IMG/VR virus record: IMGVR_UViG_2842357229_000002
Location: 300 to 64,299 of that record
DNA: 64,000 nt
Direction: 5' to 3' (one strand)
Source: a virus
Numbering within the stretch: the stretch's first letter is position 1; each line of letters opens with the position of its first letter. The position numbers were made by a program, and so were the translations under genes. Under the pieces are notes generated by a model. That model worked only from the letters and a program-made list of their open reading frames with translations. It was not told the origin of the DNA and made no database searches. Shown here piece by piece: positions 3,848-63,737 of this stretch.

Positions 3848-4447
3848 TTACGCCGTCACCTTCAGCCGCTCAATCGCCTCGCTGGCCGACGCGCACTTCG
3901 GCCGATCGTCAACCAACCGACCGCTGGCCTGCGCATCGAGCAGGATAGCCATGCACGCCCTGACGTGCGCCAGGTGCGACGCGCCGCTCTCCTGATCAAC
4001 ATCCTCACCAGAGAACCATTGCAGCAAGTGGCGGATAGCCGCGCTGTAATAGGTGGTCGCATCAATCGGCTCGTCCTGCCAATTGAACGCACCGTACTTG
4101 GCAGCGCCTAGCGCCATCACGACGCTCTCCTCGATGATTGCCACGGGCGGGATGAACTGCGCCGACGGCTTGCGAACACCGAACGCGCGCTTGGGGTTGG
4201 TTGATGGTAGTTTGGTAATCTCCATGACTCGGTTGAACATGCTGCCGTTGTCGTTGGCCTCCGAGGCAGCAAGCGTAGCATGCACCCTTGGAAAGCGGTT
4301 CGCAGCCTTGTCGATCATGCCGTCATAGTCCACCTTCCCTATTGCCGCGCCAAGCGCGCGCAATTCGGAAGGGACGTTATTGTCATTGGCGCTACGCGAA
4401 GGTGCGGCGATGAGGTCGCCGTCGAGGTTGAATAGCGGGTTGTTCAT
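3848..4447 (-). CDS. dATP/dGTP diphosphohydrolase domain protein (DUF5664)
   Basis: KPSAQFIPP...VMALGAAKYGAFNW...YYSAAIRHL...DQESGASHLAHVRAC. Confidence 0.85.
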   Translation of the reverse strand: MNNPLFNLDGDLIAAPSRSANDNNVPSELRALGAAIGKVDYDGMIDKAANRFPRVHATLAASEANDNGSMFNRVMEITKLPSTNPKRAFGVRKPSAQFIPPVAIIEESVVMALGAAKYGAFNWQDEPIDATTYYSAAIRHLLQWFSGEDVDQESGASHLAHVRACMAILLDAQASGRLVDDRPKCASASEAIERLKVTA

Positions 4448-4845
4448 ACGGTCTCCTCCAATTCTGCCAATGCTCGCTCGTACTTCTCGCGAAGGTGCGC
4501 AGCGCCAGGGCGAAGGTTGTCTTTGATGTCGGCGATCTTGACTCGCCGCGAGATCGGGTTGGCCTTTGCGCGTTCGATGAACGCCTCGTACGGCTCGTGC
4601 TTGCGCCGCGTTAGTGCGCCCACCGCATATGTGACTTCAGGAGCGAAGCCAGCCATAGCCAGATCCGTAAGATCACATTCGCAGTCCTCAACGACATCAT
4701 GGAGAACGCCGACTATTTGATCCACTTCGCCACTCAGCGAAAGCATGACGCGAAGTGGGTGGAGGATGTACGGCTGGCCGCTTTTGTCGACTTGTCCATG
4801 GTGCAATTCCGCCGCCATCTGTATTGCTGTGCGTAGGTCGCTCAT
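4444..4845 (-). CDS. Stand-alone HD-domain hydrolase of the RelA/SpoT hydrolase (small alarmone hydrolase) type
   Basis: AAELHHGQVDKSGQPYILHPLRV...VLHDVVED...VKIADIKDN. Confidence 0.8.
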   Translation of the reverse strand: MSDLRTAIQMAAELHHGQVDKSGQPYILHPLRVMLSLSGEVDQIVGVLHDVVEDCECDLTDLAMAGFAPEVTYAVGALTRRKHEPYEAFIERAKANPISRRVKIADIKDNLRPGAAHLREKYERALAELEETV

Positions 4846-5051
4846 TTTCCCTCCTTGAGTGCGGCGTCGATGGCGCGACGCCAAAGTTCCGTGGTCGTGG
4901 CGCCTGCGTTCAGGATTGGATGACCAGCAGGTAGATCACGCATCGCCTCGATTGCGGCGCGGGCGGCAGGTACGCACAATTCCCATTTGCTGTCGGTCGG
5001 CAGTTCGGCAAGGCATATCGCCCGCGCTACCTTCTCAATCATCTCGCTCAA
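4842..5051 (-). CDS. Hypothetical phage protein
   Basis: 69 aa, ATGA-type overlaps with both neighbours. Confidence 0.6.
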   Translation of the reverse strand: MSEMIEKVARAICLAELPTDSKWELCVPAARAAIEAMRDLPAGHPILNAGATTTELWRRAIDAALKEGK

Positions 5052-5833
5052 GCCGCCACCCTCCTATTCGTCAACGCCTCAAACGTAATCAAAAACTCCG
5101 TCTCAGCCGCAGCCGGCGACCAGCAACCTATCCGCACGCCCAACAGCTCGTTATACCGCGCATGCCAAGCCATCGGCGCCATGTTGACGAGCTCGTCGCC
5201 AATGATGCGGTTGTCTGCTTCGTGGACTTCGGCAGGCAATTCGCGCGCCAGTCCGAACCGCGCGGCTATCGCCAGCCAGTTGCGGCTTTCGATATCCTTG
5301 TAGTTCGCTAGGAACGGCTTGAGCGGGCGCGGCACGTCTACGACGTACGCTTCTGTGGCGTCGTGCAGCAAGCCATGCAGCGCCATGGCCGGGCCGTACT
5401 TACGTTGCAGCCAGCGGGCGATATGAACGCTGTGCTCGGCTACGCTGTAAAAGGAAATGGCGTGGCCGGCGTAGCGGCATTGCAGGGACAGGCTGTGGGC
5501 GATGTCTTCGATGAAGACTTCTTCGGCGCGCGGATCGCAAGGCCAATATTTGCCGCCGCGGTAAGTCTGCATGAAGTCGCCTTCACGACGAGCGAGCCCA
5601 ATATACCCACCAACCGCAAATCCAGCCGACGCGCCGGATTCGTCAACGACTAGGCCGCCCGTTTCGCCGTACCGCTTAGCGCCAGTAAAGGCGTCATTCG
5701 CCGCCACATACTTCTCGGGCGGCACGGGTTGCGCGCCGTAGCCGGGGATCATAAGCAGTTCGTTATAAGGTTGTGGCGAAACATTATAACCATCGCCGTC
5801 CTCGTTGGGGATTCTTCCGCCGAATAGGGTCAT
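5048..5833 (-). CDS. HD-domain 5'-deoxynucleotidase-like protein (YfbR/YfdR type)
   Basis: IEDIAHSLSLQCRYAGH...YSVAEHSV...LLHDATEAYVVDVPRPLK. Confidence 0.8.
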   Translation of the reverse strand: MTLFGGRIPNEDGDGYNVSPQPYNELLMIPGYGAQPVPPEKYVAANDAFTGAKRYGETGGLVVDESGASAGFAVGGYIGLARREGDFMQTYRGGKYWPCDPRAEEVFIEDIAHSLSLQCRYAGHAISFYSVAEHSVHIARWLQRKYGPAMALHGLLHDATEAYVVDVPRPLKPFLANYKDIESRNWLAIAARFGLARELPAEVHEADNRIIGDELVNMAPMAWHARYNELLGVRIGCWSPAAAETEFLITFEALTNRRVAA

Positions 5834-6009
5834 TGTGCGGCCTCCTTCTCTTCCCAAAAACGGCAATACTTGGCGCCGATGCCGGCCTCCTTTTCGGGGT
5901 AGCCATCGCGCACTAGCGTGTCTTCAAGGGTTTCGCCTGGATGGGGGTTATAGACGCGCGGGAAGCCGTGACGCCAGCCGCCTGGCGGGTCGTAAATGGT
6001 GGTGGTCAT
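5830..6009 (-). CDS. Hypothetical 59-aa protein (not in ORF track)
   Basis: MTTTIYDPPGGWRHGFPRVYNP...RFWEEKEAAQ; GAGGAGAC RBS; ATGA overlap with the next gene. Confidence 0.6.
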   Translation of the reverse strand: MTTTIYDPPGGWRHGFPRVYNPHPGETLEDTLVRDGYPEKEAGIGAKYCRFWEEKEAAQ

Positions 6010-6061
6010 GAAGTCTCCTCTTCTGTGGTGTGATTGCCGATTGGTGGTCGGCGGGTGGTGG

Positions 6062-6232: not shown

Positions 6233-6444
6233 CAGACGCTCCATCCCATGAACTTCTTGAGGGTGTCACCTATGCGCGCAGCGACACCACAATGCTCTTG
6301 CGTCCGTCCGTAGGTAGTCATGTGCTCGCCGTGCGGCTCGGGGGAGTCATGGCATCGGCGAGCGTAGATGACGACTTGGTCGTAACCATAGTTCTTGGCG
6401 ATCATTTCCGCCGTGCTGATGGGGATGTCACGCATCGTACTCAC
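6232..6444 (-). CDS. Hypothetical phage protein
   Basis: 70 aa, coupled to neighbours. Confidence 0.6.
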   Translation of the reverse strand: MSTMRDIPISTAEMIAKNYGYDQVVIYARRCHDSPEPHGEHMTTYGRTQEHCGVAARIGDTLKKFMGWSV

Positions 6445-6599
6445 GCCACCCTCCTCTGCTCTGCCGGCACGTTGTCGTTTGCATTTGCGTAAAGCTCCGC
6501 CTGACGGATAACATCCAACTCCTGAACCTCATCAGACTGCGCCGCCACCCACGCATCAAATTCAACAATGGCCAGTTCAACTATTTCGTTGCCGGTCAC
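6441..6599 (-). CDS. Hypothetical 52-aa protein (not in ORF track)
   Basis: GTG start overlapping the upstream stop; MTGNEIVELAIVEFDAW...ANANDNVPAEQRRVA. Confidence 0.55.
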   Translation of the reverse strand: MTGNEIVELAIVEFDAWVAAQSDEVQELDVIRQAELYANANDNVPAEQRRVA

Positions 6600-7843
6600 G
6601 CCGCAGCCCTCAATGGAGCGTTGTCGTTTGCTGCATCAAGCATCGCGACACGAACACGCGAAATCTCGCCGTACTCCCTGTGGTAGGTGATCGTCTGCAG
6701 CGAACGGCCAGACAGGAAGCCGGAGCCGAAATGCCAAGCATCCTGCGGTATCGGTGCTTGGTGTGATTCCATAATCACGCCACCACCCTCCGTCGCAAGC
6801 TTAGACTTGTGGTGGACGTGGAATCCGTGGGCGTACCTGAACTTTGACGCTCCCCAGTCCTCGGCTCTGCGGTGCGCCATTATTCCCGGCATGTCCTGCA
6901 GCTTGGCCTCGTGGCCGTGTGTCGCAGAAATCATCACCTTGTCATAGCGACGATGGAAGAAGAGCGATTTGTCGAGATCTACGATGACACGAGGCTCGTT
7001 GCGATACCAAGCGTGCAGGAACCACGCGATTGCCGGCGCCGTCTCCTCGTCGTGGTTGCCCTTGAGATTGCGAACCTCAACGACAGCATTGCGTCTTAGC
7101 GCAGCGTCAATGGTGCGGACTAGAAGCCTGCCCGCAGTCTCCGTGACCTTGGTGTGCCTGCCGTCGACATCGAGGACGTTCTTGGATCTCGATGTCCTGT
7201 TCTCGTTGTTGTCTGCGTGTGTTAGGTCGCCTCCACCAAGAACGATTGCCACCCCGCTTGCCGGTGATCTGGCGACAGCCTCCTCAATACCGCGACCAAT
7301 GACGCGTTCCGCTATTTTCAGATCCCAGTTTTCGTCTGTCTCCTGGCTCCACGCGAACATTCCGACGTGCCAGTCATTGCATGGAATGAGCGTAACGAGC
7401 TCTTCTTGGACGTGTTCCGGCGCGGGCGTCGGGATGGCTGCCGGCTCATAGTTGGAGAATGCCGCCTTCAACGTTTCGGCGATGTCGATCGCCGACGGCT
7501 CTTCCCTCGTCTTCACCCACTTAAGGACTTCCCGCCCCTCTTCGTCGACGAGGGCCGAGACGCCTTTTATCGTATGGCCAGCCGGTACTTCAAATTCGGC
7601 GCCATGCTCGCGTCGCTGTTTGATATAGTCGCCGTTCGGCGTGTTGCTGACCTGCGCAATACGAAAACCCGGCAGCACTGGCTTCGTTCCCAACATCCCC
7701 CGCTCCGATGCAATCTTCAAGCGCGACTGAAAAGTAGTGCGGGACAGATGCAGAAAATCGGCCGCCGCTTGCTGCGAGCCAAGCGCGATGAACGCGTCGG
7801 CGGCTTCCTTGGCTAGTTCGTCTGATAATGGGCGAGTGGGCAA
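6596..7843 (-). CDS. Calcineurin-like metallophosphoesterase with N-terminal HTH
   Basis: NDWHVG, GGGDLTHAD, KGNHD, THGH, HGFHVHH motifs. Confidence 0.8.
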   Translation of the reverse strand: MPTRPLSDELAKEAADAFIALGSQQAAADFLHLSRTTFQSRLKIASERGMLGTKPVLPGFRIAQVSNTPNGDYIKQRREHGAEFEVPAGHTIKGVSALVDEEGREVLKWVKTREEPSAIDIAETLKAAFSNYEPAAIPTPAPEHVQEELVTLIPCNDWHVGMFAWSQETDENWDLKIAERVIGRGIEEAVARSPASGVAIVLGGGDLTHADNNENRTSRSKNVLDVDGRHTKVTETAGRLLVRTIDAALRRNAVVEVRNLKGNHDEETAPAIAWFLHAWYRNEPRVIVDLDKSLFFHRRYDKVMISATHGHEAKLQDMPGIMAHRRAEDWGASKFRYAHGFHVHHKSKLATEGGGVIMESHQAPIPQDAWHFGSGFLSGRSLQTITYHREYGEISRVRVAMLDAANDNAPLRAAA

Positions 7844-7845
7844 GA

Positions 7846-8085
7846 TTAGGATTCCTTCTTTCTTGCGGCGAGCATGGCGTCGGCATAGGCGTAAGAATCA
7901 TGTGCCAATCGCGCTGGCTCGAGATGTGATCCTGGCTCGCCAGCAAGAGCGCCGGCCATTGCCTTTATTGCCGCGTAATCGCGCAGCGACATGCCGCTAT
8001 TCAGGTGAACTGTTGTTCTGCCGTAGAAATCTTTAGTTTCGTGCGCACGCGGAAACGCAGCCCCGCCGTCATCAATCTTCACCAT
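7846..8085 (-). CDS. Conserved hypothetical phage protein
   Basis: DDGGAAFP...GMSLRDYAAIKAMAGALA pattern common in phage early proteins. Confidence 0.65.
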   Translation of the reverse strand: MVKIDDGGAAFPRAHETKDFYGRTTVHLNSGMSLRDYAAIKAMAGALAGEPGSHLEPARLAHDSYAYADAMLAARKKES

Positions 8086-12723: not shown

Positions 12724-12752
12724 TTGAAAATTGCCTGGCTATGGACCTATAT
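12724..12752 (+). promoter_or_regulatory. Probable constitutive promoter of the RgpF moron
   Basis: TTGAAA-N17-CTATAT, close to the rhizobial RpoD consensus. Confidence 0.5.
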
Positions 12753-12778
12753 GGTTTTTACAACCGTTGGGGATACAA

Positions 12779-35764: not shown

Positions 35765-36058
35765 TCACAATGGCCACCCATCCGCTCCGTATACCACCAC
35801 CGTCTTGCCATTGTCCTCAAGCTGGCCGCGAGAGGAGTGGCACGGCTTGCACGTGCTTATGAATGGTCCGCTCCAGAACAGATCAAGGTCGCCCTTGTGA
35901 GCGACCTTGTGGTGAACCTCATTGGCTGCCGTGATCTCTTCCCGCTCTAAGCACCATTCGCATAGGGGATGGATAGATAGTTGTGCGTGCCTAATAGCGC
36001 GCCAGCGTGCCGTTTTATATAGGTGAACCCAAGGCGTATTGGCGCGATACTTTGTCAT
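35765..36058 (-). CDS. Packaging-associated HNH endonuclease (HK97 gp74-like)
   Basis: YKTARWRAIR...PLCEWC...VHH...CKPCHS. Confidence 0.85.
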   Translation of the reverse strand: MTKYRANTPWVHLYKTARWRAIRHAQLSIHPLCEWCLEREEITAANEVHHKVAHKGDLDLFWSGPFISTCKPCHSSRGQLEDNGKTVVVYGADGWPL

Positions 36059-40216: not shown

Positions 40217-40635
40217 GCTGCCACCCGCATCAGCCCATCGTTGTCATTCGCCACTTCGAAGAATTTTTCAGCCGACACTTCGGCGCCAGTCTTCTTTTCG
40301 CGAATCCACAGGTTTTCTGGGTTGATATCGAGGTGGTCGCCGTTGAATGGGAATACGTCGTATGCCGCTGGAACGGGACGATGGTATGTTAGGAACAGAC
40401 TGATGCGGTGGGCCATTTTCGATGCGTGAACCCGCGTTGGCTTGGCGAAATTGCTGGTTTCCTTGCTTACCAGTTCGAACTCGCCGTAGAAGTATTTTTC
40501 ACAATCTACGGTGTTGTGATTTGTGTTTTTCTGACCTGTCCAAATCCACTTGCCATCCGGCTGCTTGGAAACGTTCCTCCAGAACGTGCCATCATGTCCC
40601 GATCTCATGTCGATCTGCTTTTGTGTAAGTGGCAT
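40213..40635 (-). CDS. Degenerate HNH-like protein
   Basis: FWRNV..Q.DG.WIWTG...AHRIS...NGDHLDINPENLW; the usual HxC metal ligands are missing. Confidence 0.6.
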   Translation of the reverse strand: MPLTQKQIDMRSGHDGTFWRNVSKQPDGKWIWTGQKNTNHNTVDCEKYFYGEFELVSKETSNFAKPTRVHASKMAHRISLFLTYHRPVPAAYDVFPFNGDHLDINPENLWIREKKTGAEVSAEKFFEVANDNDGLMRVAA

Positions 40636-43890: not shown

Positions 43891-44519
43891 TATGCTGCAT
43901 TCCTGATCGTCGAAATGATGAATTCGATTGCCTCGTCTGGCTCGATGGCAAACCATTCGCCGTTTCTGCGGTAGTCTCCGAAATGCGAATGCGCGGCTCT
44001 TTCGACCGCGCTTGCGTTGTTCGCATATCTCGCCATCTCCAACCGCAACGCATGCGGGCTGCCCGTCGACAACTGCGTCAGGCGCTTCTCTGGTGAGTTG
44101 GCGATTCCTATCTTACAGAGTGGCGGGTCGTTGTCGTTTGCGGAGATGACGTAGACGAAGCGACCTGCATCGTGTTTGTCACCACGCGGTGACGTCGTGG
44201 TGTGCGCCGGTTCTGGCGTTGTCTTGGAGGCGGCAATGGACGCCACCTTGTCCCACGCCCAACGATGCAGCGTCTTGGAAACGAAATCATCTGGAGTATC
44301 GATATCCATCATGCCGAGCTCGCCGAGAAGGTAATGAAGCGCGCTCTGCCCTTGCAAGTTTTTGTGGTAGTCATTGTCCAATGCGCGGATTTCCATACGG
44401 AGAATTTCGCCACCGTCATCGGCGCATAGAAAAAATGTGCTGCCTGTTTGGTCTTCAGCCACCCTAGCTTCCACAATTTCAACGCTAAGCGGGCGCCTAT
44501 TCACTTCAAGCGGCTTCAT
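43890..44519 (-). CDS. GIY-YIG (T5orf172-like) domain protein
   Basis: FVYVI...CKIGIA..PEKRL.QL.TGSP...ERAAH..F...R.NGEWF. Confidence 0.8.
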   Translation of the reverse strand: MKPLEVNRRPLSVEIVEARVAEDQTGSTFFLCADDGGEILRMEIRALDNDYHKNLQGQSALHYLLGELGMMDIDTPDDFVSKTLHRWAWDKVASIAASKTTPEPAHTTTSPRGDKHDAGRFVYVISANDNDPPLCKIGIANSPEKRLTQLSTGSPHALRLEMARYANNASAVERAAHSHFGDYRRNGEWFAIEPDEAIEFIISTIRNAA

Positions 44520-45154: not shown

Positions 45155-45972
45155 GAATCTGCTCCAGCCCTTGACTTTGGGAAGTTCAAGTAACAGCGAT
45201 CTCCCCATGTTTCGTATGCTGCGGCGTCGTACGCAAAGGCGGCTTCCTCTGGCGTTAAGAACACACCAAGATGGCGCTGTTTCCTTTCATGCCTTATTGT
45301 CGCGCGCCATTTTCCGTTTCTTCCGTAAGGGCTAACTCCCTTGAAGGCACCTAGCGACGGCTTCATATGTTGGGCTTCTATGTTGCTTCGCAGGGCTGGA
45401 GGCGCCTCTGGCGCCACATCTGGAAAATTCAGATAGCAACCAACTCCCCACCACGCAAAAGCGGCAGAGTCATAGGCGCGCGCAGCCAACTCTTCCGTTT
45501 CAAAATACCCCAGATGGCGCAACTTCCCATCTATGCTGATATGCGCAATCCACTTTCCATTCCTACCGACGTATGAAACTCCCTTGTACGGTCCTTTCTT
45601 CGGCGGTGACTTACGGCTAGACGCGCTCATTTTAGCCCTACTAGAGTCTGAATACACAAAACCGCTGGACCCCTCCCCGCCCTCGGTTAAATTTACCAGT
45701 AAGCCGCCAAATTCTCGGCGCCCGTATTTAGCGATTTCGCTACGCTCAATCTCAAATGCCTCGATCTCCGTGAGACCCTCATGGAGTTTTACTATCGTCG
45801 GCTCCAATCCATCGCGCTTAATCTTGGCTACGATATTCTTGAAAATAATGCCCCTCTTCATCCTAGCGGCGCGCTTCCCCCTCCCCTTCCCGATATAGAA
45901 CGGAGTGCCACACGGCCGAAGCCAGGCGTAGACATAGAAGTCCCCAGAGATTGTGGGTGATGATTCGCTCAT
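45151..45972 (-). CDS. GIY-YIG homing endonuclease with two AP2 domains
   Basis: FYVYAW...FYIGKG..R; LVNLTEGGEG; two KGVS...W.A.I...HLG.F...AA.AYD repeats. Confidence 0.85.
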   Translation of the reverse strand: MSESSPTISGDFYVYAWLRPCGTPFYIGKGRGKRAARMKRGIIFKNIVAKIKRDGLEPTIVKLHEGLTEIEAFEIERSEIAKYGRREFGGLLVNLTEGGEGSSGFVYSDSSRAKMSASSRKSPPKKGPYKGVSYVGRNGKWIAHISIDGKLRHLGYFETEELAARAYDSAAFAWWGVGCYLNFPDVAPEAPPALRSNIEAQHMKPSLGAFKGVSPYGRNGKWRATIRHERKQRHLGVFLTPEEAAFAYDAAAYETWGDRCYLNFPKSRAGADS

Positions 45973-46547
45973 GCAGCAGCCCTCGCCATGTCATCGGCCG
46001 GTGAGTTGTCATTCGCCGCAACAAACCTATCCGTCTGATTGCCCCAAGCCGACCACCCCGGCCAACCCTGGCGCGCGAACAATTCGAGATACGGCCCGCC
46101 GACTAGCCGCTCAATACGGCCGTACTGCTCGTCAGGCTTTCGGCTATGTTCACGGCGCGGTGCGCGGATAAGCTGGCGCACACCCTTGCCGATACGAGGC
46201 GGCTTGCCGCGCTTGAACAGATGGCAGATCTCGACTTCCTGGCGCGTCCAGTAGCCCATGCCCATGCGGCCCTTGTCCCAGACGAAGGCGATAGATACCG
46301 GCGCGAAGCCCCATGCCGCAGCCACTTCGAAGGCAGGCTGCTGGAGATGCGACACCGTCCACATGAACAGAACGCAGTCGTGCGCCGCAACGTCGGAGAC
46401 GGGCAGCGCCTTGATGTCGGCTAAGCTCATGACGGAATAGGGTTGTGCGCCTCTGGCGGGGGCTACGTCTTGCTTGCCGTAGGTTCTGAACGACCATGGC
46501 GGGTCTGCCAAGACGGCGCCGAAGCGCCCATCCGGTAACGGGTTCAT
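45969..46547 (-). CDS. MT-A70 family adenine methyltransferase
   Basis: VLADPPW, LFMW, GMGYWTR, HSRKP, YLELFAR. Confidence 0.9.
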   Translation of the reverse strand: MNPLPDGRFGAVLADPPWSFRTYGKQDVAPARGAQPYSVMSLADIKALPVSDVAAHDCVLFMWTVSHLQQPAFEVAAAWGFAPVSIAFVWDKGRMGMGYWTRQEVEICHLFKRGKPPRIGKGVRQLIRAPRREHSRKPDEQYGRIERLVGGPYLELFARQGWPGWSAWGNQTDRFVAANDNSPADDMARAAA

Positions 46548-48563: not shown

Positions 48564-50252
48564 TCAATACGGAATTTCGTCCCGCTCCCAATCGGCGAGG
48601 TTATCATTCGCGGGTGGCGGTGCGTTGTCGTTGGCTGGTTCTAACTGGTGGTCGCCGACACGGTGAGCCATGACGTCGGGGTATTTAGGATTGCGGCTAT
48701 AATCTAGCTGCACTTCCGCGGTTTCCGCGACTTCGTGCTGGCGCTCGAGGAATTCAATGACATCCTTCGGAAACGGACGCCTGCCGCCATGCGCCAACCA
48801 CCATCGATCGGCTTTCGTTTTCGGGTAGCCAGTATGAGCGCAGCAAAGCCATTCGTTGACAGATTTTAGACCCACCATGTAGCTGACCTTCACGCTGTCT
48901 GGCTTACCCTCCTTGCCGGGATGATGCCGAAACGTCCTCTGCGAAACCGGATACCAAGGCTTTTCCGTAGACAGAACCGGAGCATCTGCCGCCTTGGCGG
49001 TAAGCTTTTCCTCCTCATTTGGCGTAAATTCATAGCCGCAGCACGTGCACTTCATCACCGAGATCAAAAGAATTTCATCGCAACCGAAATTGCCGTTTGC
49101 ATCCTTCTTGTCGGTAGGGCAAATCTTCTGAGGTGGTGTGCCGTCACCAGATCCAGGCGGCTTAGGCCGAATAAGATCGATCGGCCCGAATCGACTTAAA
49201 TTGTTCCCATGATCAAGCACCAGTCCGTCCGTCTTGCCCTCGCAAAGGCGGGTAACTCGCCCGATGATCTGGACGATAAGACCGGCGCTTTTCGTGCTTC
49301 GATAGATGGAGATCATATCAACGAACGGGTAATTCGCGCCGGTCGTCAGCATATTCACCGAAACCAATCCCCACACCTTACCGGAACGAAAGTCGGCAAT
49401 AATCCTGTCGTGCTCGCCGGGATTCTGGCTGGTCAGCAGTTCGCAAGTCTTGCCGTGGCGCCGCACCTCGCGACACACTTTCTCAGCATTTTCCTGGCTG
49501 ACGCAGAAGAACATGGCGGCGCGACGATTGCCGCCCTTGGCGATATCTTCAGCAACGCCATCGACAATGATCTTGTCGGCGGCATTAGACACATCCCCCG
49601 GCACGTACTCGCCGGCTCGCGTATGCATGCCTTTCAGGTCGATGACAGAATTGACGCTCTTGGTTGAGATCGGCGACAGATATCCTTTTTCGATTAGCTC
49701 GCCGATACCGATCTCGTAAACCACGTCGTCGAATAGCTTGCCCTCGCCCTCGGTAAGGCGACCAGAATCGGTGCGATAATCCGTGGCCGTCAGGCCGCAG
49801 ACACGGCTATCTGGATTGCGCTCCTTCACGCCAGCAAAGAACTTGCCGTAGAGAGTGTCGGCGTTCCTTGAAATCGCGTGGGCTTCATCCACGATTACAA
49901 GGTCAATGTCGCCGAGTTGGTCCGTCTTGTTGGCGACAGACTGAATGCCGCAAAACAGGACTTGCGCTCTAGCATCACGACGCCCAAGGCCGGCAGAGTA
50001 AATTCCTGCAGGAGCAAATGGCGACAAGCCAATGAATTCTTTGAAGTTCTGAGCTACCAGAGTTTTCGAATGAGTAATATTCAGGATGCGAATATCAGGA
50101 TAATCGGCAATCAACTCTTCTATTATTTTAGAAATAACTAATGCCTTGCCCGCCCCTGTCGGAAGCACGATAAGACCATTGCCGCCACCTTCCGCCCAAT
50201 ATTTATAGAGCGCGTCGATAGCGGATCGTTGATAATCTCGGAGCTCAAGCAC
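48564..50252 (-). CDS. SF2 DEAD/DEAH helicase (RadD/UvsW-like) with C-terminal Zn ribbon
   Basis: LRDYQ, PTGAGK, DEAH, GLTAT, QIIGRVTR, CTCCG. Confidence 0.9.
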   Translation of the reverse strand: MLELRDYQRSAIDALYKYWAEGGGNGLIVLPTGAGKALVISKIIEELIADYPDIRILNITHSKTLVAQNFKEFIGLSPFAPAGIYSAGLGRRDARAQVLFCGIQSVANKTDQLGDIDLVIVDEAHAISRNADTLYGKFFAGVKERNPDSRVCGLTATDYRTDSGRLTEGEGKLFDDVVYEIGIGELIEKGYLSPISTKSVNSVIDLKGMHTRAGEYVPGDVSNAADKIIVDGVAEDIAKGGNRRAAMFFCVSQENAEKVCREVRRHGKTCELLTSQNPGEHDRIIADFRSGKVWGLVSVNMLTTGANYPFVDMISIYRSTKSAGLIVQIIGRVTRLCEGKTDGLVLDHGNNLSRFGPIDLIRPKPPGSGDGTPPQKICPTDKKDANGNFGCDEILLISVMKCTCCGYEFTPNEEEKLTAKAADAPVLSTEKPWYPVSQRTFRHHPGKEGKPDSVKVSYMVGLKSVNEWLCCAHTGYPKTKADRWWLAHGGRRPFPKDVIEFLERQHEVAETAEVQLDYSRNPKYPDVMAHRVGDHQLEPANDNAPPPANDNLADWERDEIPY

Positions 50253-50595
50253 GAGACACCTCCTCAAACGGAATGCCGGCATCGGCCAGCCTACGCCGCA
50301 TGTCAGCCGTGCCCGTGCCACCAGGAAACACGAGACCGTAATCGGGCTTGCCGTCATCAATCATCCATTGATTGCGGATGCTGCCCGCAGATTTGCCGAG
50401 GTTGTCCCAATCCGCTGGATATTTATCAACGGTCACGCCGCGACGAAACGCCCAATGGGCGGCTCGCTTATCCAGCCCGCTTGCCTCGCCCTCAATCAAA
50501 ACAGAGATTGGGCGGCGCGCATGCAACTCGTCGAGTGCCGCGAAGATGCGTGCCATGTCCGTGTAGTCGCGTCCACCCGTTACAACTAATCGCAT
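50245..50595 (-). CDS. DUF2493 / YspA-like SLOG family protein
   Basis: MRLVVTGGRDY...GEASGLD...ADW..GKSAG.IRN..M...FPGGTGTADM. Confidence 0.85.
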   Translation of the reverse strand: MRLVVTGGRDYTDMARIFAALDELHARRPISVLIEGEASGLDKRAAHWAFRRGVTVDKYPADWDNLGKSAGSIRNQWMIDDGKPDYGLVFPGGTGTADMRRRLADAGIPFEEVSRA

Positions 50596-50858
50596 CACCC
50601 ACACTCCCGCTCATACTTCTCCCGCACATCATCGCGCGCCTGCTCGGCCGCCATAGACTGCGCGAGCCGGATTGCATTAGCGCGCACCACAATCCAGCCG
50701 GCGGCACGCAACGCGGCTAGCTGGTCGACCGTGATGATGTCGCGTGGGTGGAGGTTGTCGTTGGCTGGACGTGGTTTGGCACCAGTGCGAGGAGGGGACG
50801 GCCTGCCGACTGACCCAGTTGTTACTGGCGAAAAGCTAATCATCACCGGCCCGCTCAC
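50595..50858 (-). CDS. Hypothetical protein
   Basis: 87 aa, coupled; contains ANDN. Confidence 0.55.
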   Translation of the reverse strand: MSGPVMISFSPVTTGSVGRPSPPRTGAKPRPANDNLHPRDIITVDQLAALRAAGWIVVRANAIRLAQSMAAEQARDDVREKYERECG

Positions 50859-53926: not shown

Positions 53927-54002
53927 GGTGGTGGTCTCCTCTGGTAGTGGATACGCTGGTGGTGGGGTTGCCGCATGGTTGGTGGCCATGCGGCGGTAGG
54001 GG

Positions 54003-54857
54003 TTAGGCGGCGAGGCCGAGCAACGAGAACGGCGAAGACCGATCGCGAGCCGGCGGCTCATAATCTACGGGGTAGCCTAAGCCATCCTCGCCTTCGTCAA
54101 AGCGGCTTGCGTCGAACGCCTCGCCCTTGAGTTCCGCCAATTTCTTCTGCATGCCGATTGCGTAGCTCGGTTGCGCCTCGTTGTCGTTGGCAATGAACGT
54201 GTCGCGACCGTCTTCCGTGACCGTCAGCGCCTCAATGGCTGCGTCGAGCGAGAATTCCTTGTCCTCGCCAGCCAAGACGACCTTTTCGCCATAGGCGCCG
54301 CCGATTTGGTCTTTCAGTTCCTCCCAAGTGTCGATTTTCACTTTGCGGCTGGCCAGTGCAATCTTGAGGATGTCACCCTTGCCGATGGTATAGCCGCGAT
54401 CTTGATATTTCAGAACGCGCGTAGCCGACGCCAGCGGATATCGCGTGCCAGGATGGAAGCGAAGGAAGCGTTGCGAGTTGTGTTTCAGGAAGTCATCATG
54501 GAATGCGAATTCGCCGTTGTCGAAGTCGTAAGCACCCATGACGACCGTGAAGTCGAACGCATCGAAGATGGCCTGCGCAGTCGGGAAGAAGTCGAAGTGC
54601 ATGAACTGGATAGGTGTGCCGCCCCCACTGTTCACGAATGTAACGGCGCGCTTGGTTGTCGACACGCACCACATGCTTTCTTCATAGGCTTGCGCGACTG
54701 CATACTCGAAAGCCTCACGACTCTTGAAATAGACGTCTACATCGTTGATGTCCTTGCCAGCGAACACACTGGTAACCGCTCCGCCGGCTGCGAAAGCGCC
54801 GGGGATCGGGTAGCACTTTTCGGTAATCTTGCGGGCTTCTGCTCTGTAATCGGTCAT
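54003..54857 (-). CDS. Pol-beta-superfamily nucleotidyltransferase (CCA/poly(A) polymerase head-like)
   Basis: AAGGAV...DINDVDVYF; FDFTVVMGAY. Confidence 0.7.
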   Translation of the reverse strand: MTDYRAEARKITEKCYPIPGAFAAGGAVTSVFAGKDINDVDVYFKSREAFEYAVAQAYEESMWCVSTTKRAVTFVNSGGGTPIQFMHFDFFPTAQAIFDAFDFTVVMGAYDFDNGEFAFHDDFLKHNSQRFLRFHPGTRYPLASATRVLKYQDRGYTIGKGDILKIALASRKVKIDTWEELKDQIGGAYGEKVVLAGEDKEFSLDAAIEALTVTEDGRDTFIANDNEAQPSYAIGMQKKLAELKGEAFDASRFDEGEDGLGYPVDYEPPARDRSSPFSLLGLAA

Positions 54858-54916: not shown

Positions 54917-55507
54917 TTACTTGGAGCCCCATGGGCGGCGACCACTCGGCGCCGCCGCTGCGGCAGCCGGACGTGCAGCCTGGCGGTTGTCGTTTGCTGC
55001 CGGTGCCCGATTGTCGTTTGCTGCGGCAGGCTTCTCGTCGTCAGGCTGGATTGCGTCGATGCCGAGTTCCGGCAACTCCTCGTCTGGGAAGAAGTATCGC
55101 TTGATCTCGGCACGGCCTGGATATTCCTTGCCATCCTTGCCGACCGACGGCTTGCCGCGACCAACCTTGGCGACGAAAGCCATGAAGTGGAGCTCTTCGG
55201 AATCTTCGACCGACGTTACGCCGATGGCGCGGCAAAGGCTGGCGAACTGCTTCTGTCCGATTTCCTGCGCCTGCGGATTTGCATTTTCGAGATTGTAGTT
55301 GTTGTTGAAGATCTTTCGGCCTTTGTATTCCTCCGGCTCGACGACCGTGACCGTCGTTGCCAAGTATGTGCCAGTGCCTTTGCTGGTCGGCTTCACTTCC
55401 GATGCCTCGATCTCAAGGCGAAAGATTCCGTTCGGCAGTTCGCCTGCGAATTCTCTCTGCGTGGTGTCATGCTGCGTAGCGTCAAAAGATGTAGAAAGTT
55501 TAGCCAA
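54917..55507 (-). CDS. DUF669 ssDNA-binding-like protein
   Basis: ELPNG.F...I.ASEVK.T..G.G.YL...GRKIF.N.NL.N...A..IG; start at TTG 55507 behind a GGAGA RBS. Confidence 0.8.
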   Translation of the reverse strand: MAKLSTSFDATQHDTTQREFAGELPNGIFRLEIEASEVKPTSKGTGTYLATTVTVVEPEEYKGRKIFNNNYNLENANPQAQEIGQKQFASLCRAIGVTSVEDSEELHFMAFVAKVGRGKPSVGKDGKEYPGRAEIKRYFFPDEELPELGIDAIQPDDEKPAAANDNRAPAANDNRQAARPAAAAAAPSGRRPWGSK

Positions 55508-55681
55508 TTTTAGTCTCCTTCTGTGGTGGTTAGTTGGTGAGTGCGTAGTAGCGCCAAGCGCCGCTACCGTATGCGGTGTGCGCACATTCGCGCAGCACGT
55601 ATTCAAGCCACGCCCAACGACTGCCGTTGCGCGTTTTGACGACGACGGGATGCCAGGCAAACCATTGCTCTTGGTGGAACA

Positions 55682-57835: not shown

Positions 57836-58903
57836 TTAGGCGGCCCGAAGAACCGCCGTCTTGGTGATCACTTCGTCAGCGATCCTGCTATCCGCAAGAA
57901 CGAAGACGCCGAACTCCTGGCCAGGATGCAGCAGCGCGAGGCGGCTGGCCTCGGTAGTTGCCGCTTCCTGGCTGGCGTGGACGACGGGCCGTGTGCTTGG
58001 AAGGGCGACGCCGTTTTCGATCAGGGCGACGATGGCTGGTATGGTGGTGACAAGCGCAGGAAACTGGACTTCTGAAGCTTGAAGCCACCATTCGTTGTCA
58101 TTGGCACCGTGGCCGTCGTCGAAACCTTCGAACCGAACGCGGTACGGCACTTCAGACTTGTCATCATCAATGATGACACCAAAGAGACCTTTGGTTGGGC
58201 CGTCTTCCGCCGACACGACCCGATCACCCACCTTGAACTTGGCCGGCGCCGCGTTGTCGTTGGCAATGGTGGCTGGCTCGTCGACCCATTCGGCGATGAG
58301 GTCGTCTTTGTGGCGGTGGCCGTAAGCCCAACCTGGGCAAGAGAAGCCATCGTTTCGGTAGTAGTGCGTGCCGCTGGCGAGCTTCCACGACCAGTATCCG
58401 CTCTGACCCTGCGCCACGACAATCGGCCCGACCTTCCGACCGTCGCGCGTCTTGTAGTAGCGGCCGGCGGTGATGGTGAGGGGTGCGGGTGCTGGGGCCA
58501 ACTTTAGGCTGGCGCTCGGCATGTAGAAGTTCGTTCTGCCGACCTTATTGCTCAAGCCGATCTGATCGCCGTAGATGCTCGACACGACAAGGGCGCCGTC
58601 GATGATTTCTCCAAACGCGCTACGGAAGCACCCACTCCAATGCCGGAAAATGTCGACGTTGGATTCTGTTGACTGGACTACTCGGTCGCCGACCTTAGGC
58701 TGCCATTCTGCCGGAGCGGCAGTCACGAGTTCCAGATACTGCGCAAAGTTGAACGACGAGTCGCCACTCTTATCGGAGCGCACAAAGCAATCGCCATCAC
58801 TGTCAACTTCAGTCACCGTGCCTGTGTCACCGATGCGCATGTCATCGCAATTGAAAGTGCCGATACGCCGCACTCTATCCCCAACCTTAAACTTCCCCAT
58901 CAC
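57836..58903 (-). CDS. Mosaic protein with three KVGDRV (KOW/SH3-like) modules
   Basis: FKVGDRV, PKVGDRV, FKVGDRV plus a GRYYKTRDGRKV module. Confidence 0.7.
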   Translation of the reverse strand: MMGKFKVGDRVRRIGTFNCDDMRIGDTGTVTEVDSDGDCFVRSDKSGDSSFNFAQYLELVTAAPAEWQPKVGDRVVQSTESNVDIFRHWSGCFRSAFGEIIDGALVVSSIYGDQIGLSNKVGRTNFYMPSASLKLAPAPAPLTITAGRYYKTRDGRKVGPIVVAQGQSGYWSWKLASGTHYYRNDGFSCPGWAYGHRHKDDLIAEWVDEPATIANDNAAPAKFKVGDRVVSAEDGPTKGLFGVIIDDDKSEVPYRVRFEGFDDGHGANDNEWWLQASEVQFPALVTTIPAIVALIENGVALPSTRPVVHASQEAATTEASRLALLHPGQEFGVFVLADSRIADEVITKTAVLRAA

Positions 58904-59193
58904 GCTGCTCCTTCCGTTGTGGTGTTCGGCTTCAGCGGCCGACGCTTGGTGAAGTCGACCGGGATGACGTTGTCGTCCACGGCCTGCTTGGCAGCGACCG
59001 GTGGCGTAGGCATGTCGTCGTCATCGACGAGGTCAAGCTCCCATTCGTGGAACTGCAGAACCTCCAACGTAGGCGCCACACGGATGATGACGATGGTTCC
59101 CATGAAGCCGATGACGATGCCGAAAACGTTGGCGTTCATCTTGTGCTGAACGATGTCGCCGGTGCCGATGCAGTCGCAATCAGGGCAACTCAT
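58900..59193 (-). CDS. Hypothetical protein
   Basis: 97 aa, coupled. Confidence 0.65.
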   Translation of the reverse strand: MSCPDCDCIGTGDIVQHKMNANVFGIVIGFMGTIVIIRVAPTLEVLQFHEWELDLVDDDDMPTPPVAAKQAVDDNVIPVDFTKRRPLKPNTTTEGAA

Positions 59194-59459
59194 GCCGCCA
59201 CCTGCTCTTCCTCGACGTCGGCCGACCGCGCCAGCGAAACCGGCATCAGGCCGGAGGTCGTCGAGCAGCCGCCGTTGTGGGGGATCATCTTGACGAACTT
59301 GTTGTCATTGGCTGCAAGTGGCGGGCCGTCGCGAAGCGGCTTGCGATTGCCGCCGAGGCGATAAAAAACGCCGGGGCCGGTCATATTGAATTTGTCGCCA
59401 ATTTGTCTGAGCGACATGCCTGCTCGATGCAGGGCGCGCATTTCTGCTGTCTGGTCCAT
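59190..59459 (-). CDS. Small HTH protein, Cro-like position
   Basis: RAGMSLRQIGDKFNMTGPGV.YRL; first gene of the leftward operon. Confidence 0.7.
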   Translation of the reverse strand: MDQTAEMRALHRAGMSLRQIGDKFNMTGPGVFYRLGGNRKPLRDGPPLAANDNKFVKMIPHNGGCSTTSGLMPVSLARSADVEEEQVAA

Positions 59460-62259: not shown

Positions 62260-62357
62260 TGACCTACCGCGACCTAATCCAAGACATCTGCGCCGCCCTG
62301 TCGGCTGGCGCGTTCGTCTGCGCAATCACCGTTTGGGCGTCTTACGTTATCCACTAA
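62259..62357 (+). CDS. 32-aa hydrophobic peptide (not in ORF track)
   Basis: TGATG coupling; MTYRDLIQDICAALSAGAFVCAITVWASYVIH. Confidence 0.5.
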   Translation: MTYRDLIQDICAALSAGAFVCAITVWASYVIH

Positions 62358-62448
62358 GCAGCCCATTAAGAGCGCGGCCCGTTGATGGCTGGCTGCAACT
62401 ACCGTTGCGGGCCGCGTTTTTACCAACCACCACAAGAAGGAGACCAAA

Positions 62449-62673
62449 ATGGAAAAGAGAAGACACCAGCCGCCGACGCGGCCCGCCAACACCAACGCGC
62501 CGCTGCTCACGCTCGAGCGCGCAATCGCCGACGGCCTCACGCCAACCTCGTTGAGGCAGGTTGCCGCCGCGAATACGAACTGCGGCTATCGTCGCGAGCG
62601 GCAGGCTGACAATCTGTTTATGATTGCCGATCGGCTGGAATTGTTGGGATATCGTTATGGGAGGGCGGCGTGA
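62449..62673 (+). CDS. Hypothetical protein
   Basis: CCACCACAAGAAGGAGAC leader. Confidence 0.6.
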   Translation: MEKRRHQPPTRPANTNAPLLTLERAIADGLTPTSLRQVAAANTNCGYRRERQADNLFMIADRLELLGYRYGRAA

Positions 62674-63287
62674 TGACGATACCGAAGGAAGCCTTAGAGG
62701 CTGCCGCGTCGACGGTATGGAGCGGCGGAACGCGCGACCTACCTGAGCGCGTATCGCACATCACCAAGATCATCACCGCCTACCTTGCCGCCGCCCCACA
62801 ACCAGACGGGACAGTGGCGCAGGAGCCGGTGGCTTGGCGGTGGCGATATGAGGATGAAGACCAGTGGACGCTCCGGACTGGCAAGCCCCCAGTATTCCTC
62901 GACACTATCGCTGAACCTTTATACGCCTCCCCACCACCCGCAGTAGCGGAAGAGGTGGGGGTGAAGGACTCCCCCTTGACGCTAACGCTGCAGATGGTCG
63001 AAGCCGCCGCCAGGGCGATGGACCCGGAAGTGTTCAGCGATGACCCAGAGGAAGCGCACCGAGCAGCATCACCGCTTATCGTTGAGCGCGTGAGAGATCG
63101 AGTTCGTGAAGCCGCACGAACCGCGCTAACTGCCGCCCTCTCCTCCCCACCAAGCGAGCCCGCGCCGCAGGTGGTGGATAATGAAATCGCGCGATTACGC
63201 CGAAATCTAGAAAGGCGAGATGAATACATCGTCGGTCAAGGTCTCTGGGATGATTTTGTAAGCCGTTTGGAGGCCAGCCGTGATTAA
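62670..63287 (+). CDS. Hypothetical (Eaa-like) phage protein
   Basis: EPVAWRW...PLYA motif; repeated ..AAA..ALTAAL helices. Confidence 0.65.
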   Translation: MMTIPKEALEAAASTVWSGGTRDLPERVSHITKIITAYLAAAPQPDGTVAQEPVAWRWRYEDEDQWTLRTGKPPVFLDTIAEPLYASPPPAVAEEVGVKDSPLTLTLQMVEAAARAMDPEVFSDDPEEAHRAASPLIVERVRDRVREAARTALTAALSSPPSEPAPQVVDNEIARLRRNLERRDEYIVGQGLWDDFVSRLEASRD

Positions 63288-63462
63288 GATCAAACACGAT
63301 GATCTGTGCCCGTGCACGCGCTTCTACACCCAACCTTATTTCTGCACTTGCGGTGCGGCGTCATGCGAAACAGATTTGAATGCCGGCATGAAGCGTTTCG
63401 GCGATCGTCTTCGCGACATCAACCGCCGCGCCGCCATCGCCAGCCAGGAGAAGAAGGGATGA
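63280..63462 (+). CDS. Hypothetical protein
   Basis: 60 aa, coupled. Confidence 0.5.
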   Translation: MIKIKHDDLCPCTRFYTQPYFCTCGAASCETDLNAGMKRFGDRLRDINRRAAIASQEKKG

Positions 63463-63737
63463 AGACGGCGGCGAATGATAACGGGCCACGCCTGATTGGT
63501 CGCAAGGAGGCTGCAGCCTATTGCAGCGTCACGCCGACATGCTTCTCTATGTGGGTGGCGAGCCACAAGATGCCGCCGGCGATACCCGGCACGCGAAAAT
63601 GGGACAAGAGAGCGATCGACGCCAAGCTTGACGAAATAAGCGGTCTGGCTGTGAATGACAACAAGGCCGAAGGCGGCTTAACCGAATGGAGAAGAAAACG
63701 CGATGCGCGCAAAGCTCAAAGGGCTAATGAAGGTTAA
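63459..63737 (+). CDS. Excisionase-like / AlpA-type HTH protein
   Basis: LIGRKEAAAYC.V...F..WV....P......RKWD; directly before the integrase. Confidence 0.75.
   Translation: MKTAANDNGPRLIGRKEAAAYCSVTPTCFSMWVASHKMPPAIPGTRKWDKRAIDAKLDEISGLAVNDNKAEGGLTEWRRKRDARKAQRANEG

Follow-up and report, generated by a model that had tools for sequence, protein, structure and literature searches.

How does a single tetrapeptide, Ala-Asn-Asp-Asn (ANDN), come to be present in 16 unrelated proteins of one virus? The source is a temperate Rhizobium phage, of which we analysed a stretch of 64,000 nucleotides (hereafter the window). An earlier note on this DNA had proposed that ANDN, as the head of the ssrA (tmRNA) tag, docks phage proteins on the host adaptor SspB, either to time their turnover by the protease ClpXP or to titrate the adaptor.

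Frequency, reading frame and carriers of the motif

Six-frame translation of the window recovers 21 ANDN copies, 20 on the minus strand and one on the plus strand, all at the positions previously listed save two that are shifted by one base (48624 and 58094). ANDN is the commonest tetrapeptide in the window proteome (87 ORFs, 19,088 aa), being seen 21 times vs 0.21 expected; 2000 within-protein shuffles yielded three at most (Poisson P ~1e-34), in agreement with the earlier estimate of less than one copy by chance. The other 11 orderings of A, N, D and N occur 0-3 times each in the window, and NDN is found 27 times in its proteome (~1.8 expected). Near-variants comprise DNDN (three copies) and TNDN, KNDN, VNDN, ANDA and ANDE (one each), among them all four that had been reported.

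Could this be a signal in DNA or RNA that merely reads as ANDN, such as a Chi-like or packaging signal, a translational pause, or a site for protein binding, methylation or restriction? The codons offer some encouragement: the Asp codon is GAC in 18/21 copies (background share 57%, P 0.007), the last Asn codon is AAC in 18/21 (background 60%, P 0.015), and the commonest version of the word (GCC/GCA AAC GAC AAC) resembles the GCAAACGACAAC of the tmRNA gene. However, each of the 21 copies is in frame with the long ORF that spans it, and the ORFs concerned, 16 altogether, take in all three minus-strand frames; there is therefore no copy of the DNA word GCNAAYGAYAAY outside a reading frame in the six-frame translation of the whole window. 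The word is absent from the opposite strand except in the one gene coded there, for an excisionase-like protein, and in related phages ANDN is always on the gene strand, switching strand together with the genes. Synonymous codons differ at all four positions (GCC/GCA/GCG, AAC/AAT, GAC/GAT), and every third position varies. What is found is thus an in-frame, gene-strand-following element with degenerate third positions, not a frame-independent site of fixed nucleotides. Because ANDN is frame-locked, a nucleic acid signal is contradicted and very improbable, and the earlier claim that selection acts on the peptide stands. The GAC-AAC skew is mild; we count it against the explanation preferred below.

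The carriers and their ANDN copies are as follows.

3848..4447, minus strand: MazZ-like dATP/dGTP diphosphohydrolase-domain protein, 199 aa (Pfam domain aa 83-182); ANDN at aa 20 (nt 4379-4390) and aa 64 (nt 4247-4258), both ahead of the domain
6441..6599, minus strand: 52-aa ORF; ANDN at aa 40 (nt 6471-6482); last 13 residues ANDNVPAEQRRVA, tag-like but with a Val-Ala end
6596..7843, minus strand: exonuclease-like protein (phrog_704), 415 aa; ANDN at aa 405 (nt 6620-6631); C-terminus AANDNAPLRAAA, a whole-tag look-alike
31963..33240, minus strand: portal protein, 425 aa (Pfam domain aa 51-377); ANDN at aa 414 (nt 31990-32001), C-terminal to the domain; C-terminus AANDNESKDATAA, a whole-tag look-alike
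36055..37137, minus strand: HNH endonuclease, 360 aa (HNH domain aa 295-347); ANDN at aa 12 (nt 37093-37104) and aa 223 (nt 36460-36471), neither within the domain
37771..38712, minus strand: protein of unknown function, 313 aa; ANDN at aa 21 (nt 38641-38652)
40213..40635, minus strand: 140-aa protein; ANDN at aa 129 (nt 40240-40251); C-terminus VANDNDGLMRVAA, a whole-tag look-alike
43890..44519, minus strand: T5orf172 (GIY-YIG-like) protein, 209 aa; ANDN at aa 127 (nt 44130-44141); Ala-Ala end
45969..46547, minus strand: MT-A70 DNA methyltransferase, 192 aa (domain aa 9-171); ANDN at aa 178 (nt 46005-46016), C-terminal to the domain; C-terminus AANDNSPADDMARAAA, a whole-tag look-alike
48564..50360, minus strand: SF2 (ResIII) helicase, 598 aa; ANDN at aa 576 (nt 48624-48635) and aa 584 (nt 48600-48611), both in the C-terminal tail, followed by an SSB-tip-like end, DEIPY
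50595..50858, minus strand: 87-aa protein; ANDN at aa 32 (nt 50754-50765), within a segment rich in Pro
54003..54857, minus strand: 284-aa protein (phrog_18122, profile match aa 20-216); ANDN at aa 223 (nt 54180-54191), directly after the match; Ala-Ala end
54917..55660, minus strand: DUF669 SSB-like protein, 247 aa (domain aa 65-181); ANDN at aa 214 (nt 55010-55021) and aa 222 (nt 54986-54997), in the tail after the domain
57836..58903, minus strand: multi-domain protein, 355 aa; ANDN at aa 214 (nt 58253-58264) and aa 267 (nt 58094-58105); Ala-Ala end
59190..59459, minus strand: Cro-like protein, 89 aa; ANDN at aa 50 (nt 59301-59312), within AANDN; Ala-Ala end
63456..63737, plus strand: excisionase-like HTH protein, 93 aa when started at the ATG at 63456; the only plus-strand ANDN, at aa 6 (nt 63471-63482), within AANDN

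The identities previously given to the portal, SF2 helicase, HNH protein, MT-A70 methylase, DUF669 SSB-like, Cro-like and excisionase-like proteins are upheld. The carriers have only the four residues in common, the core being N-D-N, usually with Ala or Pro before it (Ala in 10/21 window copies; about a third of copies have Pro). Their distribution is uneven: the structural block (8.9-35.3 kb, 29 proteins) has one ANDN and three Ala-Ala ends, and the 58 proteins outside it have 20 ANDN and 16 Ala-Ala ends.

Sequence context and conservation

Only 1 of the 11 copies in Pfam-matched proteins lies within a Pfam domain envelope (that of T5orf172, aa 121-201, whose homologues do not have it), and one further copy is inside a PHROG profile match. 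The 355-aa protein is instructive. In the AF2 model its aa 214 copy falls in aa 210-220, the one long linker whose pLDDT is under 50, and across 61 homologues (36-58% identity) N215, D216 and N217 reach at least 90% conservation; its C-terminal tail is also predicted to be disordered (pLDDT below 50, aa 341-352), and 111/120 homologues have the Ala-Ala end. The copy at aa 267 is lineage-specific and lies in a loop, as does the lineage-specific T5orf172 copy. In the helicase tails, ANDN is present in 93/120 close homologues; among the 152 copies in the tails of 120 homologues, the preceding residue is Ala in 83 and Pro in 52.

One might suppose that a Pro/Ala-rich linker cassette containing ANDN was spread by recombination or duplication and has no function. 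The phage genomes of this lineage are mosaics, and the Pro-rich flanks (9.4% vs 5.2%), which are poor in hydrophobic residues, together with the mild synonymous skew to GAC-AAC, would suit such a passenger. Yet the flanks have no common sequence, and in orthologue comparisons ANDN is retained, changing synonymously, while surrounding residues mutate and gain indels. Nor would a passenger be expected to persist in the predicted disordered linker of the 355-aa protein, or in the helicase tails despite their hypervariable spacers, and we regard this alternative as quite improbable. On the structural predictions, the setting of ANDN in disordered or terminal segments outside folded domains is that of a short linear motif (SLiM), and its evolution, conserved amid diverging flanks and gained and lost between lineages, is likewise that of one. 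We conclude that selection acts on ANDN as a short linear peptide motif in the disordered tails and linkers of this lineage's non-structural proteins.

A Rhizobium leucaenae strain (hereafter the host) carries a prophage whose portal is 96% identical to that of the window. This prophage has 16 ANDN copies, and two further relatives, RHph_TM3_3_14B and NV1.1.1, have 18 and 20. The portal ANDN and Ala-Ala end are retained in RHph_TM3_3_14B and the prophage while the surrounding tail diverges; the AANDN of the Cro-like protein is kept in 3/3 relatives, and the methyltransferase orthologue in the prophage has AANDNYPAAPAQAGAA at the corresponding C-terminus. No in-frame ANDN was found in five phages that share the helicase. 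Three control phages of other alphaproteobacterial hosts with ANDN-type tags (Rhodobacter, Paracoccus and Brucella) have none in frame. The motif is thus not common to alphaproteobacterial phages at large, and its presence indicates a lineage habit rather than a general need. The 6.7 Mb host genome has 50 ANDN DNA matches, half of which (25) are within three prophage-like islands.

The host tag and Ala-Ala C-termini

What might read such a motif? The R. leucaenae tmRNA tag, as identified with ARAGORN, is ANDNYAEARLAA, 12 residues long, and its first four residues are ANDN, as the earlier note has it for rhizobial tags. The tmRNA donates an Ala ahead of the encoded tag, so that tagged proteins carry A-ANDNYAEARLAA; the Ala before ANDN in 10/21 window copies is as in the real tag. 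In characterised systems the tag head is the part read by the adaptor SspB. The host sspB gene is ~150 bp from ssrA (PF04386, 162 bits), its product matches the Caulobacter SspB structures 2QAS/2QAZ (E ~1e-35), and a 486-aa ORF encodes ClpX with the zinc-finger N-domain (PF06689, 76 bits). Both SspB and a ClpX with an adaptor-binding N-domain are therefore encoded. The E. coli tag is bound by SspB through its first seven residues and by ClpX through the C-terminal ALAA (PMC9963277).

The other end of the tag also recurs. Ala-Ala ends are present in 22% of window proteins and in 22-30% of proteins in ANDN-rich phages, vs 5% in the host and 0-2% in control phages (72/297 in four ANDN-rich genomes vs 18/350 host ORFs and 3/199 in four control phages, P 1.5e-14). 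Within the window they are associated with ANDN (8/16 ANDN proteins vs 11/71 others, P 0.006); this co-enrichment is a pointer to ClpX. Across the four genomes the last ANDN is 11-16 residues from the C-terminus in 19/59 ANDN proteins, and never closer; 11 of these 19 end in AA and 15 in xA, giving 11 whole-tag look-alikes with spacing like that of the 12-residue host tag. Four window proteins combine tag-like spacing with an xAA end, plus one that ends in VA. To judge from sequence, then, ANDN copies the head of the host tmRNA tag, often with the tag's Ala-Ala ending.

We favour, at a probability of about one half, the explanation that the phage ANDN copies belong to encoded modules, part SspB-docking site and part ClpX degron, which render early proteins unstable. 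Host SspB would dock on the ANDN of a phage protein and tether it to the ClpX N-domain for delivery to ClpXP, and a second signal, often a C-terminal Ala-Ala, would then enter the ClpX pore. The Ala-Ala could lie 11-15 residues downstream of ANDN, as in the whole-tag look-alikes, or at a distant C-terminus, forming a bipartite degron. Early, regulatory and potentially toxic proteins would be short-lived in consequence, and virion proteins, with neither signal, would remain stable. ANDN thus probably ties phage protein stability to the host SspB-ClpXP protease. The SspB-docking interpretation of the earlier note is, on these sequence comparisons, partly supported.

The same match to the tag head would serve a decoy, in which SspB of the infected or induced host would be sequestered by the ANDN copies, with slower clearance of ssrA-tagged or other SspB-dependent substrates, or shielding of phage proteins, as the consequence; on this view the ANDN proteins are not themselves meant to be degraded. 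Half of the window ANDN proteins have no Ala-Ala end, and in 16/21 cases the copy is internal or N-terminal, a long way from a C-terminal degron. The DUF669 SSB-like protein and the helicase, both abundant and early, have two copies each, yet end in SK or PY rather than AA. However, the association of ANDN with Ala-Ala ends on the same proteins and the 11 look-alikes with host-like spacing count against this, because a pure decoy needs neither Ala-Ala ends nor tag spacing, and we consider a decoy unlikely.

It is also conceivable, if somewhat doubtful, that ANDN addresses another hub, of phage or host, unrelated to SspB, so that the match to the tag is a four-residue coincidence. Candidates would be a chaperone, a scaffold of a replication/recombination factory or a modifying enzyme. 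In keeping with this, the ANDN-bearing tails have hub motifs of other kinds, namely an SSB-tip-like D-E-I-P-F/Y end in the helicase and, in the methylase of a relative, a clamp-type QLSLF, and the residues after ANDN differ from the host tag's Tyr-Ala; alphaproteobacterial SspB could, moreover, have low affinity for the phage motifs if an aromatic tag residue is required. Against it, the carriers extend beyond replication (Cro-like and excisionase-like proteins, portal, nucleotide hydrolase), and the Ala-Ala-COOH co-enrichment points to ClpX. The window encodes no reader resembling Clp or SspB, and its only protease besides the likely prohead protease is probably exported, since it has a signal peptide. 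A host reader is favoured by the small integrase island of the host, with its six ANDN copies.

Relation to known systems

Set beside tmRNA tags, such as those of E. coli (AANDENYALAA) and Caulobacter (AANDNFAEEFAVAA), the phage motif has an (A)ANDN head, which matches that of the host tag; many copies have Ala-Ala-COOH and a length of 11-15 residues vs 12, and the host of a phage relative has SspB beside ssrA, and ClpX. In contrast to the tag, which tmRNA adds co-translationally to stalled chains, the motifs are gene-encoded in frame, and we therefore regard them as tag mimics and reject membership in the tmRNA-tagged class. The tag middle, YAEARL, is missing from the phage copies, most of which are internal or N-terminal without an adjacent C-terminal degron, and Pro, often before the phage motif, never precedes the real tag.

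A parallel to the internal copies may be E. coli RseA(1-108), which Flynn and colleagues (Genes Dev, 2004) are said to have described as a natural SspB-delivered ClpXP substrate with a bipartite signal. In both, an encoded docking site, a putative one in the phage, is distant from a C-terminal xAA degron on the same protein, a layout found in the ANDN proteins at 54003-54857, 57836-58903 and 59190-59459. The docking sequence of RseA is, however, unlike the ssrA head, and belongs to one protein in one pathway, whereas the phage has one four-residue motif in 16 unrelated proteins of a single virus.

Encoded Ala-Ala ends as ClpX signals have precedent in regulatory and replication proteins, including those of phages, and the ends described here are candidates for the same role; Caulobacter CtrA has such an end. 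The C-motif-1 and phage-related ClpXP substrates include ssrA-like and MuA-like C-termini and the N-terminus of lambda O (PMC8138137). Those are single proteins, in contrast to 22% of proteins in the window and 22-30% in its relatives, and the phage proteins additionally carry the adaptor half of the tag.

ANDN in this phage amounts to one host-derived motif across a third of the non-structural proteome. Our literature search found no published description of a bacterial virus spreading one host-derived motif across its proteome. In general character, ANDN resembles the SLiM mimicry of eukaryotic viruses and bacterial hub motifs such as the SSB C-terminal tip and the beta-clamp QL[SD]LF: all are very short, lie in disordered segments as conserved islands in divergent flanks, and are gained convergently in unrelated proteins. 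We know of no other bacterial virus with one such motif in a third of its non-structural proteome.

ANDN in the phage and its relatives

The virus record is 65,054 bp long, and the window takes in 64 kb of it (G+C 57%), with genes arranged as in a temperate siphovirus:

0-8.7 kb: lysis and nucleotide-metabolism genes
8.9-35.3 kb: structural block of tail, head and packaging genes
35.7-59.5 kb: early/replication block with nucleases (HNH, T5orf172), methylases (Dam, MT-A70), primase-polymerase, SF2 helicase, sigma-like protein, DnaN clamp, DUF669, AAA_24 ATPase and RNA-ligase-like protein
Divergent immunity/excision block: S24 repressor and excisionase-like protein

By blastn, Rhizobium phage RHph_TM3_3_14B and Sinorhizobium phage NV1.1.1 are the closest relatives that have a name. 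A prophage in Rhizobium leucaenae USDA 9039 carries a portal 96% identical to that of the window, and some 26 kb of its DNA aligns at 80-98% identity. The 57836-58903 product recurs on a 732,577-bp contig as a protein (P0271) that is 100% identical but has an N-terminus shorter by one residue; a sequenced bacterial genome therefore also contains this phage as a prophage.

The earlier note had reported that the ssrA (tmRNA) tag peptide Ala-Asn-Asp-Asn (ANDN) is written 21 times into 16 phage proteins. Six-frame translation recovers all 21 copies, 20 on the minus strand and one on the plus strand, each read in the same frame as the long ORF around it (16 ORFs), with the lone plus-strand copy belonging to a plus-strand gene. 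Three of the peptides are:

31963-33240, portal tail: GGAANDNESKDATAA
48564-50360, helicase: EPANDNAPPPANDNLA
59190-59459, Cro-like protein: PPLAANDNKFVK

The estimate that chance would supply under one copy is borne out, since 0.21 are expected among 87 curated ORFs (19,088 aa; Poisson P ~1e-34), a set in which ANDN is the commonest single tetrapeptide. The highest count in 2000 within-protein shuffles is 3, each alternative order of the four residues turns up 0-3 times in the window, and the core NDN is found 27 times against about 1.8 expected. The shuffles and the other orderings rule out chance or composition as the source.

Every codon of the motif varies at its third position, as had been claimed, and the DNA word GCNAAYGAYAAY has no out-of-frame copy in the window, so the note's refuting condition of a DNA word kept outside reading frames does not apply. 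Codon usage for Ala and the first Asn (AAC 12, AAT 9) is that of the background; Asp is GAC in 18/21 copies (P 0.007) and the last Asn AAC in 18/21 (P 0.015), a minor unexplained skew, and the host tmRNA gene writes ANDN as GCA AAC GAC AAC. A DNA-level site is ruled out as the source by the frame-locking, and it is scarcely credible that ANDN marks a nucleic-acid signal.

Copies number 18 in RHph_TM3_3_14B, 20 in NV1.1.1 and 16 in the R. leucaenae prophage, and their strand changes with that of the genes. Not one in-frame ANDN occurs in five phages with the same helicase, namely Rhodobacter RcTitan, Paracoccus R3, Brucella Tb, and P. aeruginosa Ab26 and BL5. The motif is therefore rejected as a trait common to alphaproteobacterial phages, or as one that comes with the helicase/DUF669 replication module.

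A 400-kb stretch of host chromosome contains no ANDN in any frame. The 6.7-Mb R. leucaenae genome has 50 matches to the DNA pattern for ANDN, against 13 for a reversed control pattern; half of the 50 lie within three islands (the prophage 16, a small contig 6, a second prophage remnant 3) and the tmRNA gene accounts for one. Across the class, most of 61 sampled genomes have 5-25 such matches each; the sample takes in one unpublished genome (G041), which bears on none of the results. The small contig (L035, G001:C57, 4600-13300) holds its six in-frame copies within 5 kb, together with an integrase, an AAA_25 primase-like gene and an S78 prohead protease, and looks like a phage satellite or small prophage. 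Another host contig (L036, G001:C9, 11100-11900) bears second copies of two C-termini, that of the window exonuclease (ending VAMLDAANDNAPLRAAA) and that of the small ORF downstream of it.

Position, conservation and C-termini

Proteins with a Pfam match hold 11 of the copies, and only one of these, in the T5orf172 protein, falls within a domain envelope; one further copy sits inside a PHROG profile match. Copies in the window cluster at termini (4 in the first 11% of the protein, 10 in the last 25%), in flanks where Pro is enriched (9.4% vs 5.2%, P 4e-4) and hydrophobic residues are scarce. The preceding residue is Ala for 10 copies and Pro for 3. Orthologues of the portal, helicase, DUF669, exonuclease, Cro-like, excisionase-like and MT-A70 proteins keep ANDN despite surrounding substitutions and indels, and some gains are lineage-specific.

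We surveyed 120 homologues of the helicase (identity 59% or higher), all with source names that point to rhizobial genomes or phages. ANDN is present in the tail of 93, with at least two copies in 58; Ala precedes 83 copies and Pro 52, the spacers separating copies are hypervariable, and the variants DNDN, SNDN, ENDN, VNDN and TNDN occur. Among the 150 most diverse helicase representatives, ANDN is found in 3 tails only, and ANDEN and ANDDN, the latter the head of the P. aeruginosa tag ANDDNYALAA, are absent. In IMG/VR viral contigs, all matches listed for ANDEN-x3-AA-stop (L040-L159) are host tmRNA genes (ANDENYALAA) near predicted prophage ends; they reflect prophages integrated at ssrA rather than mimicry by proteins.

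In the 355-aa protein encoded at 57836-58903, N215, D216 and N217 are at least 90% conserved in an alignment of 61 homologues of 36-58% identity. Its AlphaFold2 model has a mean pLDDT of 85.5, and these residues fall in the sole long segment below 50 (aa 210-220); disorder is likewise predicted for the C-terminal tail (pLDDT <50 over aa 341-352). Conservation within a disordered stretch is what characterises a short linear motif. Set beside these figures, and the retention of ANDN among orthologues, a neutral linker cassette is a very improbable account of the motif.

The second feature of these proteins is an Ala-Ala C-terminus, which ends 22-30% of ORFs in the four ANDN-rich genomes (19/87 in the window, 72/297 pooled), compared with 5% of 350 host ORFs, 3/199 in four control phages and a compositional expectation of 1.4% (window vs host, P 7e-6; pooled set vs control phages, P 1.5e-14). 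The control phages scored for C-termini were RcTitan, R3, Tb and Ab26 (not BL5), each with 0-2% of such ends. Ala and stop codons vary at Ala-Ala ends, so here too the peptide is what is under selection. This variation, and the control phages doing without such ends, make it unlikely that they are a by-product of overlapping ATGA/GTGA stop-start sites.

Within the window, Ala-Ala ends are found in 8/16 ANDN proteins vs 11/71 others (P 0.006). ANDN and Ala-Ala ends both avoid the structural block, whose 29 proteins have one ANDN and three Ala-Ala ends, the other 58 proteins 20 and 16. In the four genomes, the last copy lies 11-16 residues from the C-terminus in 19/59 ANDN proteins, and in none nearer; 11 of these 19 end in Ala-Ala and 15 in xA, and the host tag itself has 12 residues. 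Window C-termini with a near-terminal ANDN include:

AANDNAPLRAAA
AANDNESKDATAA, portal
VANDNDGLMRVAA
AANDNSPADDMARAAA, MT-A70

The family of the 57836-58903 protein has an Ala-Ala end in 111/120 homologues, even where the C-terminal segment differs.

The host tag and its proposed readers

The earlier note had given rhizobial tags as beginning with ANDN, and the R. leucaenae tag predicted by ARAGORN, ANDNYAEARLAA, agrees. The Ala carried by tmRNA precedes the tag on a tagged protein, which therefore reads AANDN. In E. coli, the tag's seven leading residues are bound by the adaptor SspB and the C-terminal ALAA by ClpX (PMC9963277); the Caulobacter tag is AANDNFAEEFAVAA (PMC9393093). R. leucaenae has an SspB gene (PF04386, 162 bits) about 150 bp from ssrA, whose product matches the Caulobacter SspB structures 2QAS/2QAZ (E ~1e-35) and also the Agrobacterium orthologue 2NYS, and it encodes a ClpX with a zinc-finger N-domain. 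No gene separates the tmRNA gene from sspB, and both lie on the same strand (G001:C7:146682-147637; L006, L007). Caulobacter SspB-alpha reads the N-terminal part of the Caulobacter tag.

A reader encoded by the phage itself was rejected, as no Clp-like or SspB-like gene was found within the window. The trypsin-like peptidase at 8085-8747 has a signal peptide and is therefore probably exported.

The reading best supported by these sequences is that the phage encodes a two-module mimic of the host ssrA tag, with a head that would dock on SspB and a tail that ClpX would recognise. The tail would adjoin the head in some proteins and lie distant from it in others, the latter layout resembling that of E. 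coli RseA(1-108). Early and regulatory phage proteins would then be ClpXP substrates while virion proteins stay stable. We hold mimicry at a probability of about 0.5 because the residues after ANDN differ from the host tag, Pro often precedes ANDN, many copies have no degron nearby, and related phages of other alphaproteobacterial hosts manage without it. That the same conserved peptide is read by something other than SspB is unlikely, and that the copies serve as a decoy for SspB somewhat more doubtful still.

On the mimicry reading, with even odds, a temperate rhizobiophage lineage and small satellite-like islands of the same hosts would share a degron code that is modular and taken from the tmRNA tag of the host, its heads (NDN) and tails (Ala-Ala-COOH) placed separately or together on about one-third of non-structural proteins; the host quality-control protease would either set the lifetime of the entire early proteome or be saturated by it.

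Single encoded ClpX C-terminal signals are already known, as is one natural substrate delivered by SspB. Full-text literature searches yielded nothing relevant on ANDN with phage, nor on ssrA-like phage degrons with SspB, and as far as can be told one host-tag-derived motif across about one-third of a phage's non-structural proteins is undescribed. If ANDN docks on SspB, this would be the first known case of a phage copying the host degradation tag to wire much of its early proteome into an adaptor-protease pathway. It would explain a short life of the Cro-like, excisionase-like, nuclease and methylase proteins, make sspB and clpX predicted host factors in the lysis-lysogeny control of rhizobia, and provide a natural library of graded alphaproteobacterial degrons. 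ANDN would also be a simple sequence signature for finding prophages and satellites, and an instance of proteome-wide short-linear-motif mimicry in a bacterial virus. Whether bacterial viruses mimic short linear motifs, as eukaryotic viruses do, would become testable. On the mimicry model, phage motif and host tag head are expected to covary.

Other motifs and genes of the window

Directly downstream of its two ANDN copies, the helicase ends in DWERDEIPY (48564-48640). An acidic stretch followed by IPF ends the 120 close helicase homologues and many of the 150 distant ones (P0001-P0270), resembling the C-terminal tip of bacterial SSB, DDDIPF; the helicase tail may thus mimic that tip to reach SSB-binding partners. 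The phage encodes a DnaN-like sliding clamp with three Pfam clamp domains (52862-54061), and a methyltransferase tail in RHph_TM3_3_14B (L002, 6794-6841), AANDNSPQLSLFGDAA, runs from ANDN through a clamp-type QLSLF motif to Ala-Ala. The 54003-54857 protein ends in SSPFSLLGLAA (54003-54050). Tails of this kind seem to stack several short motifs.

Inside the tail-gene block, on the opposite strand, lies a gene for an RgpF-like rhamnan-synthesis glycosyltransferase (12731-13792, plus strand; Pfam E 2e-57), possibly a lysogenic-conversion (moron) gene altering host surface polysaccharide. At 3848-4884, an HD-domain protein adjoins a protein with a MazZ-like dATP/dGTP diphosphohydrolase N-domain; enzymes of the latter type are found beside base-modification pathways in some phages.
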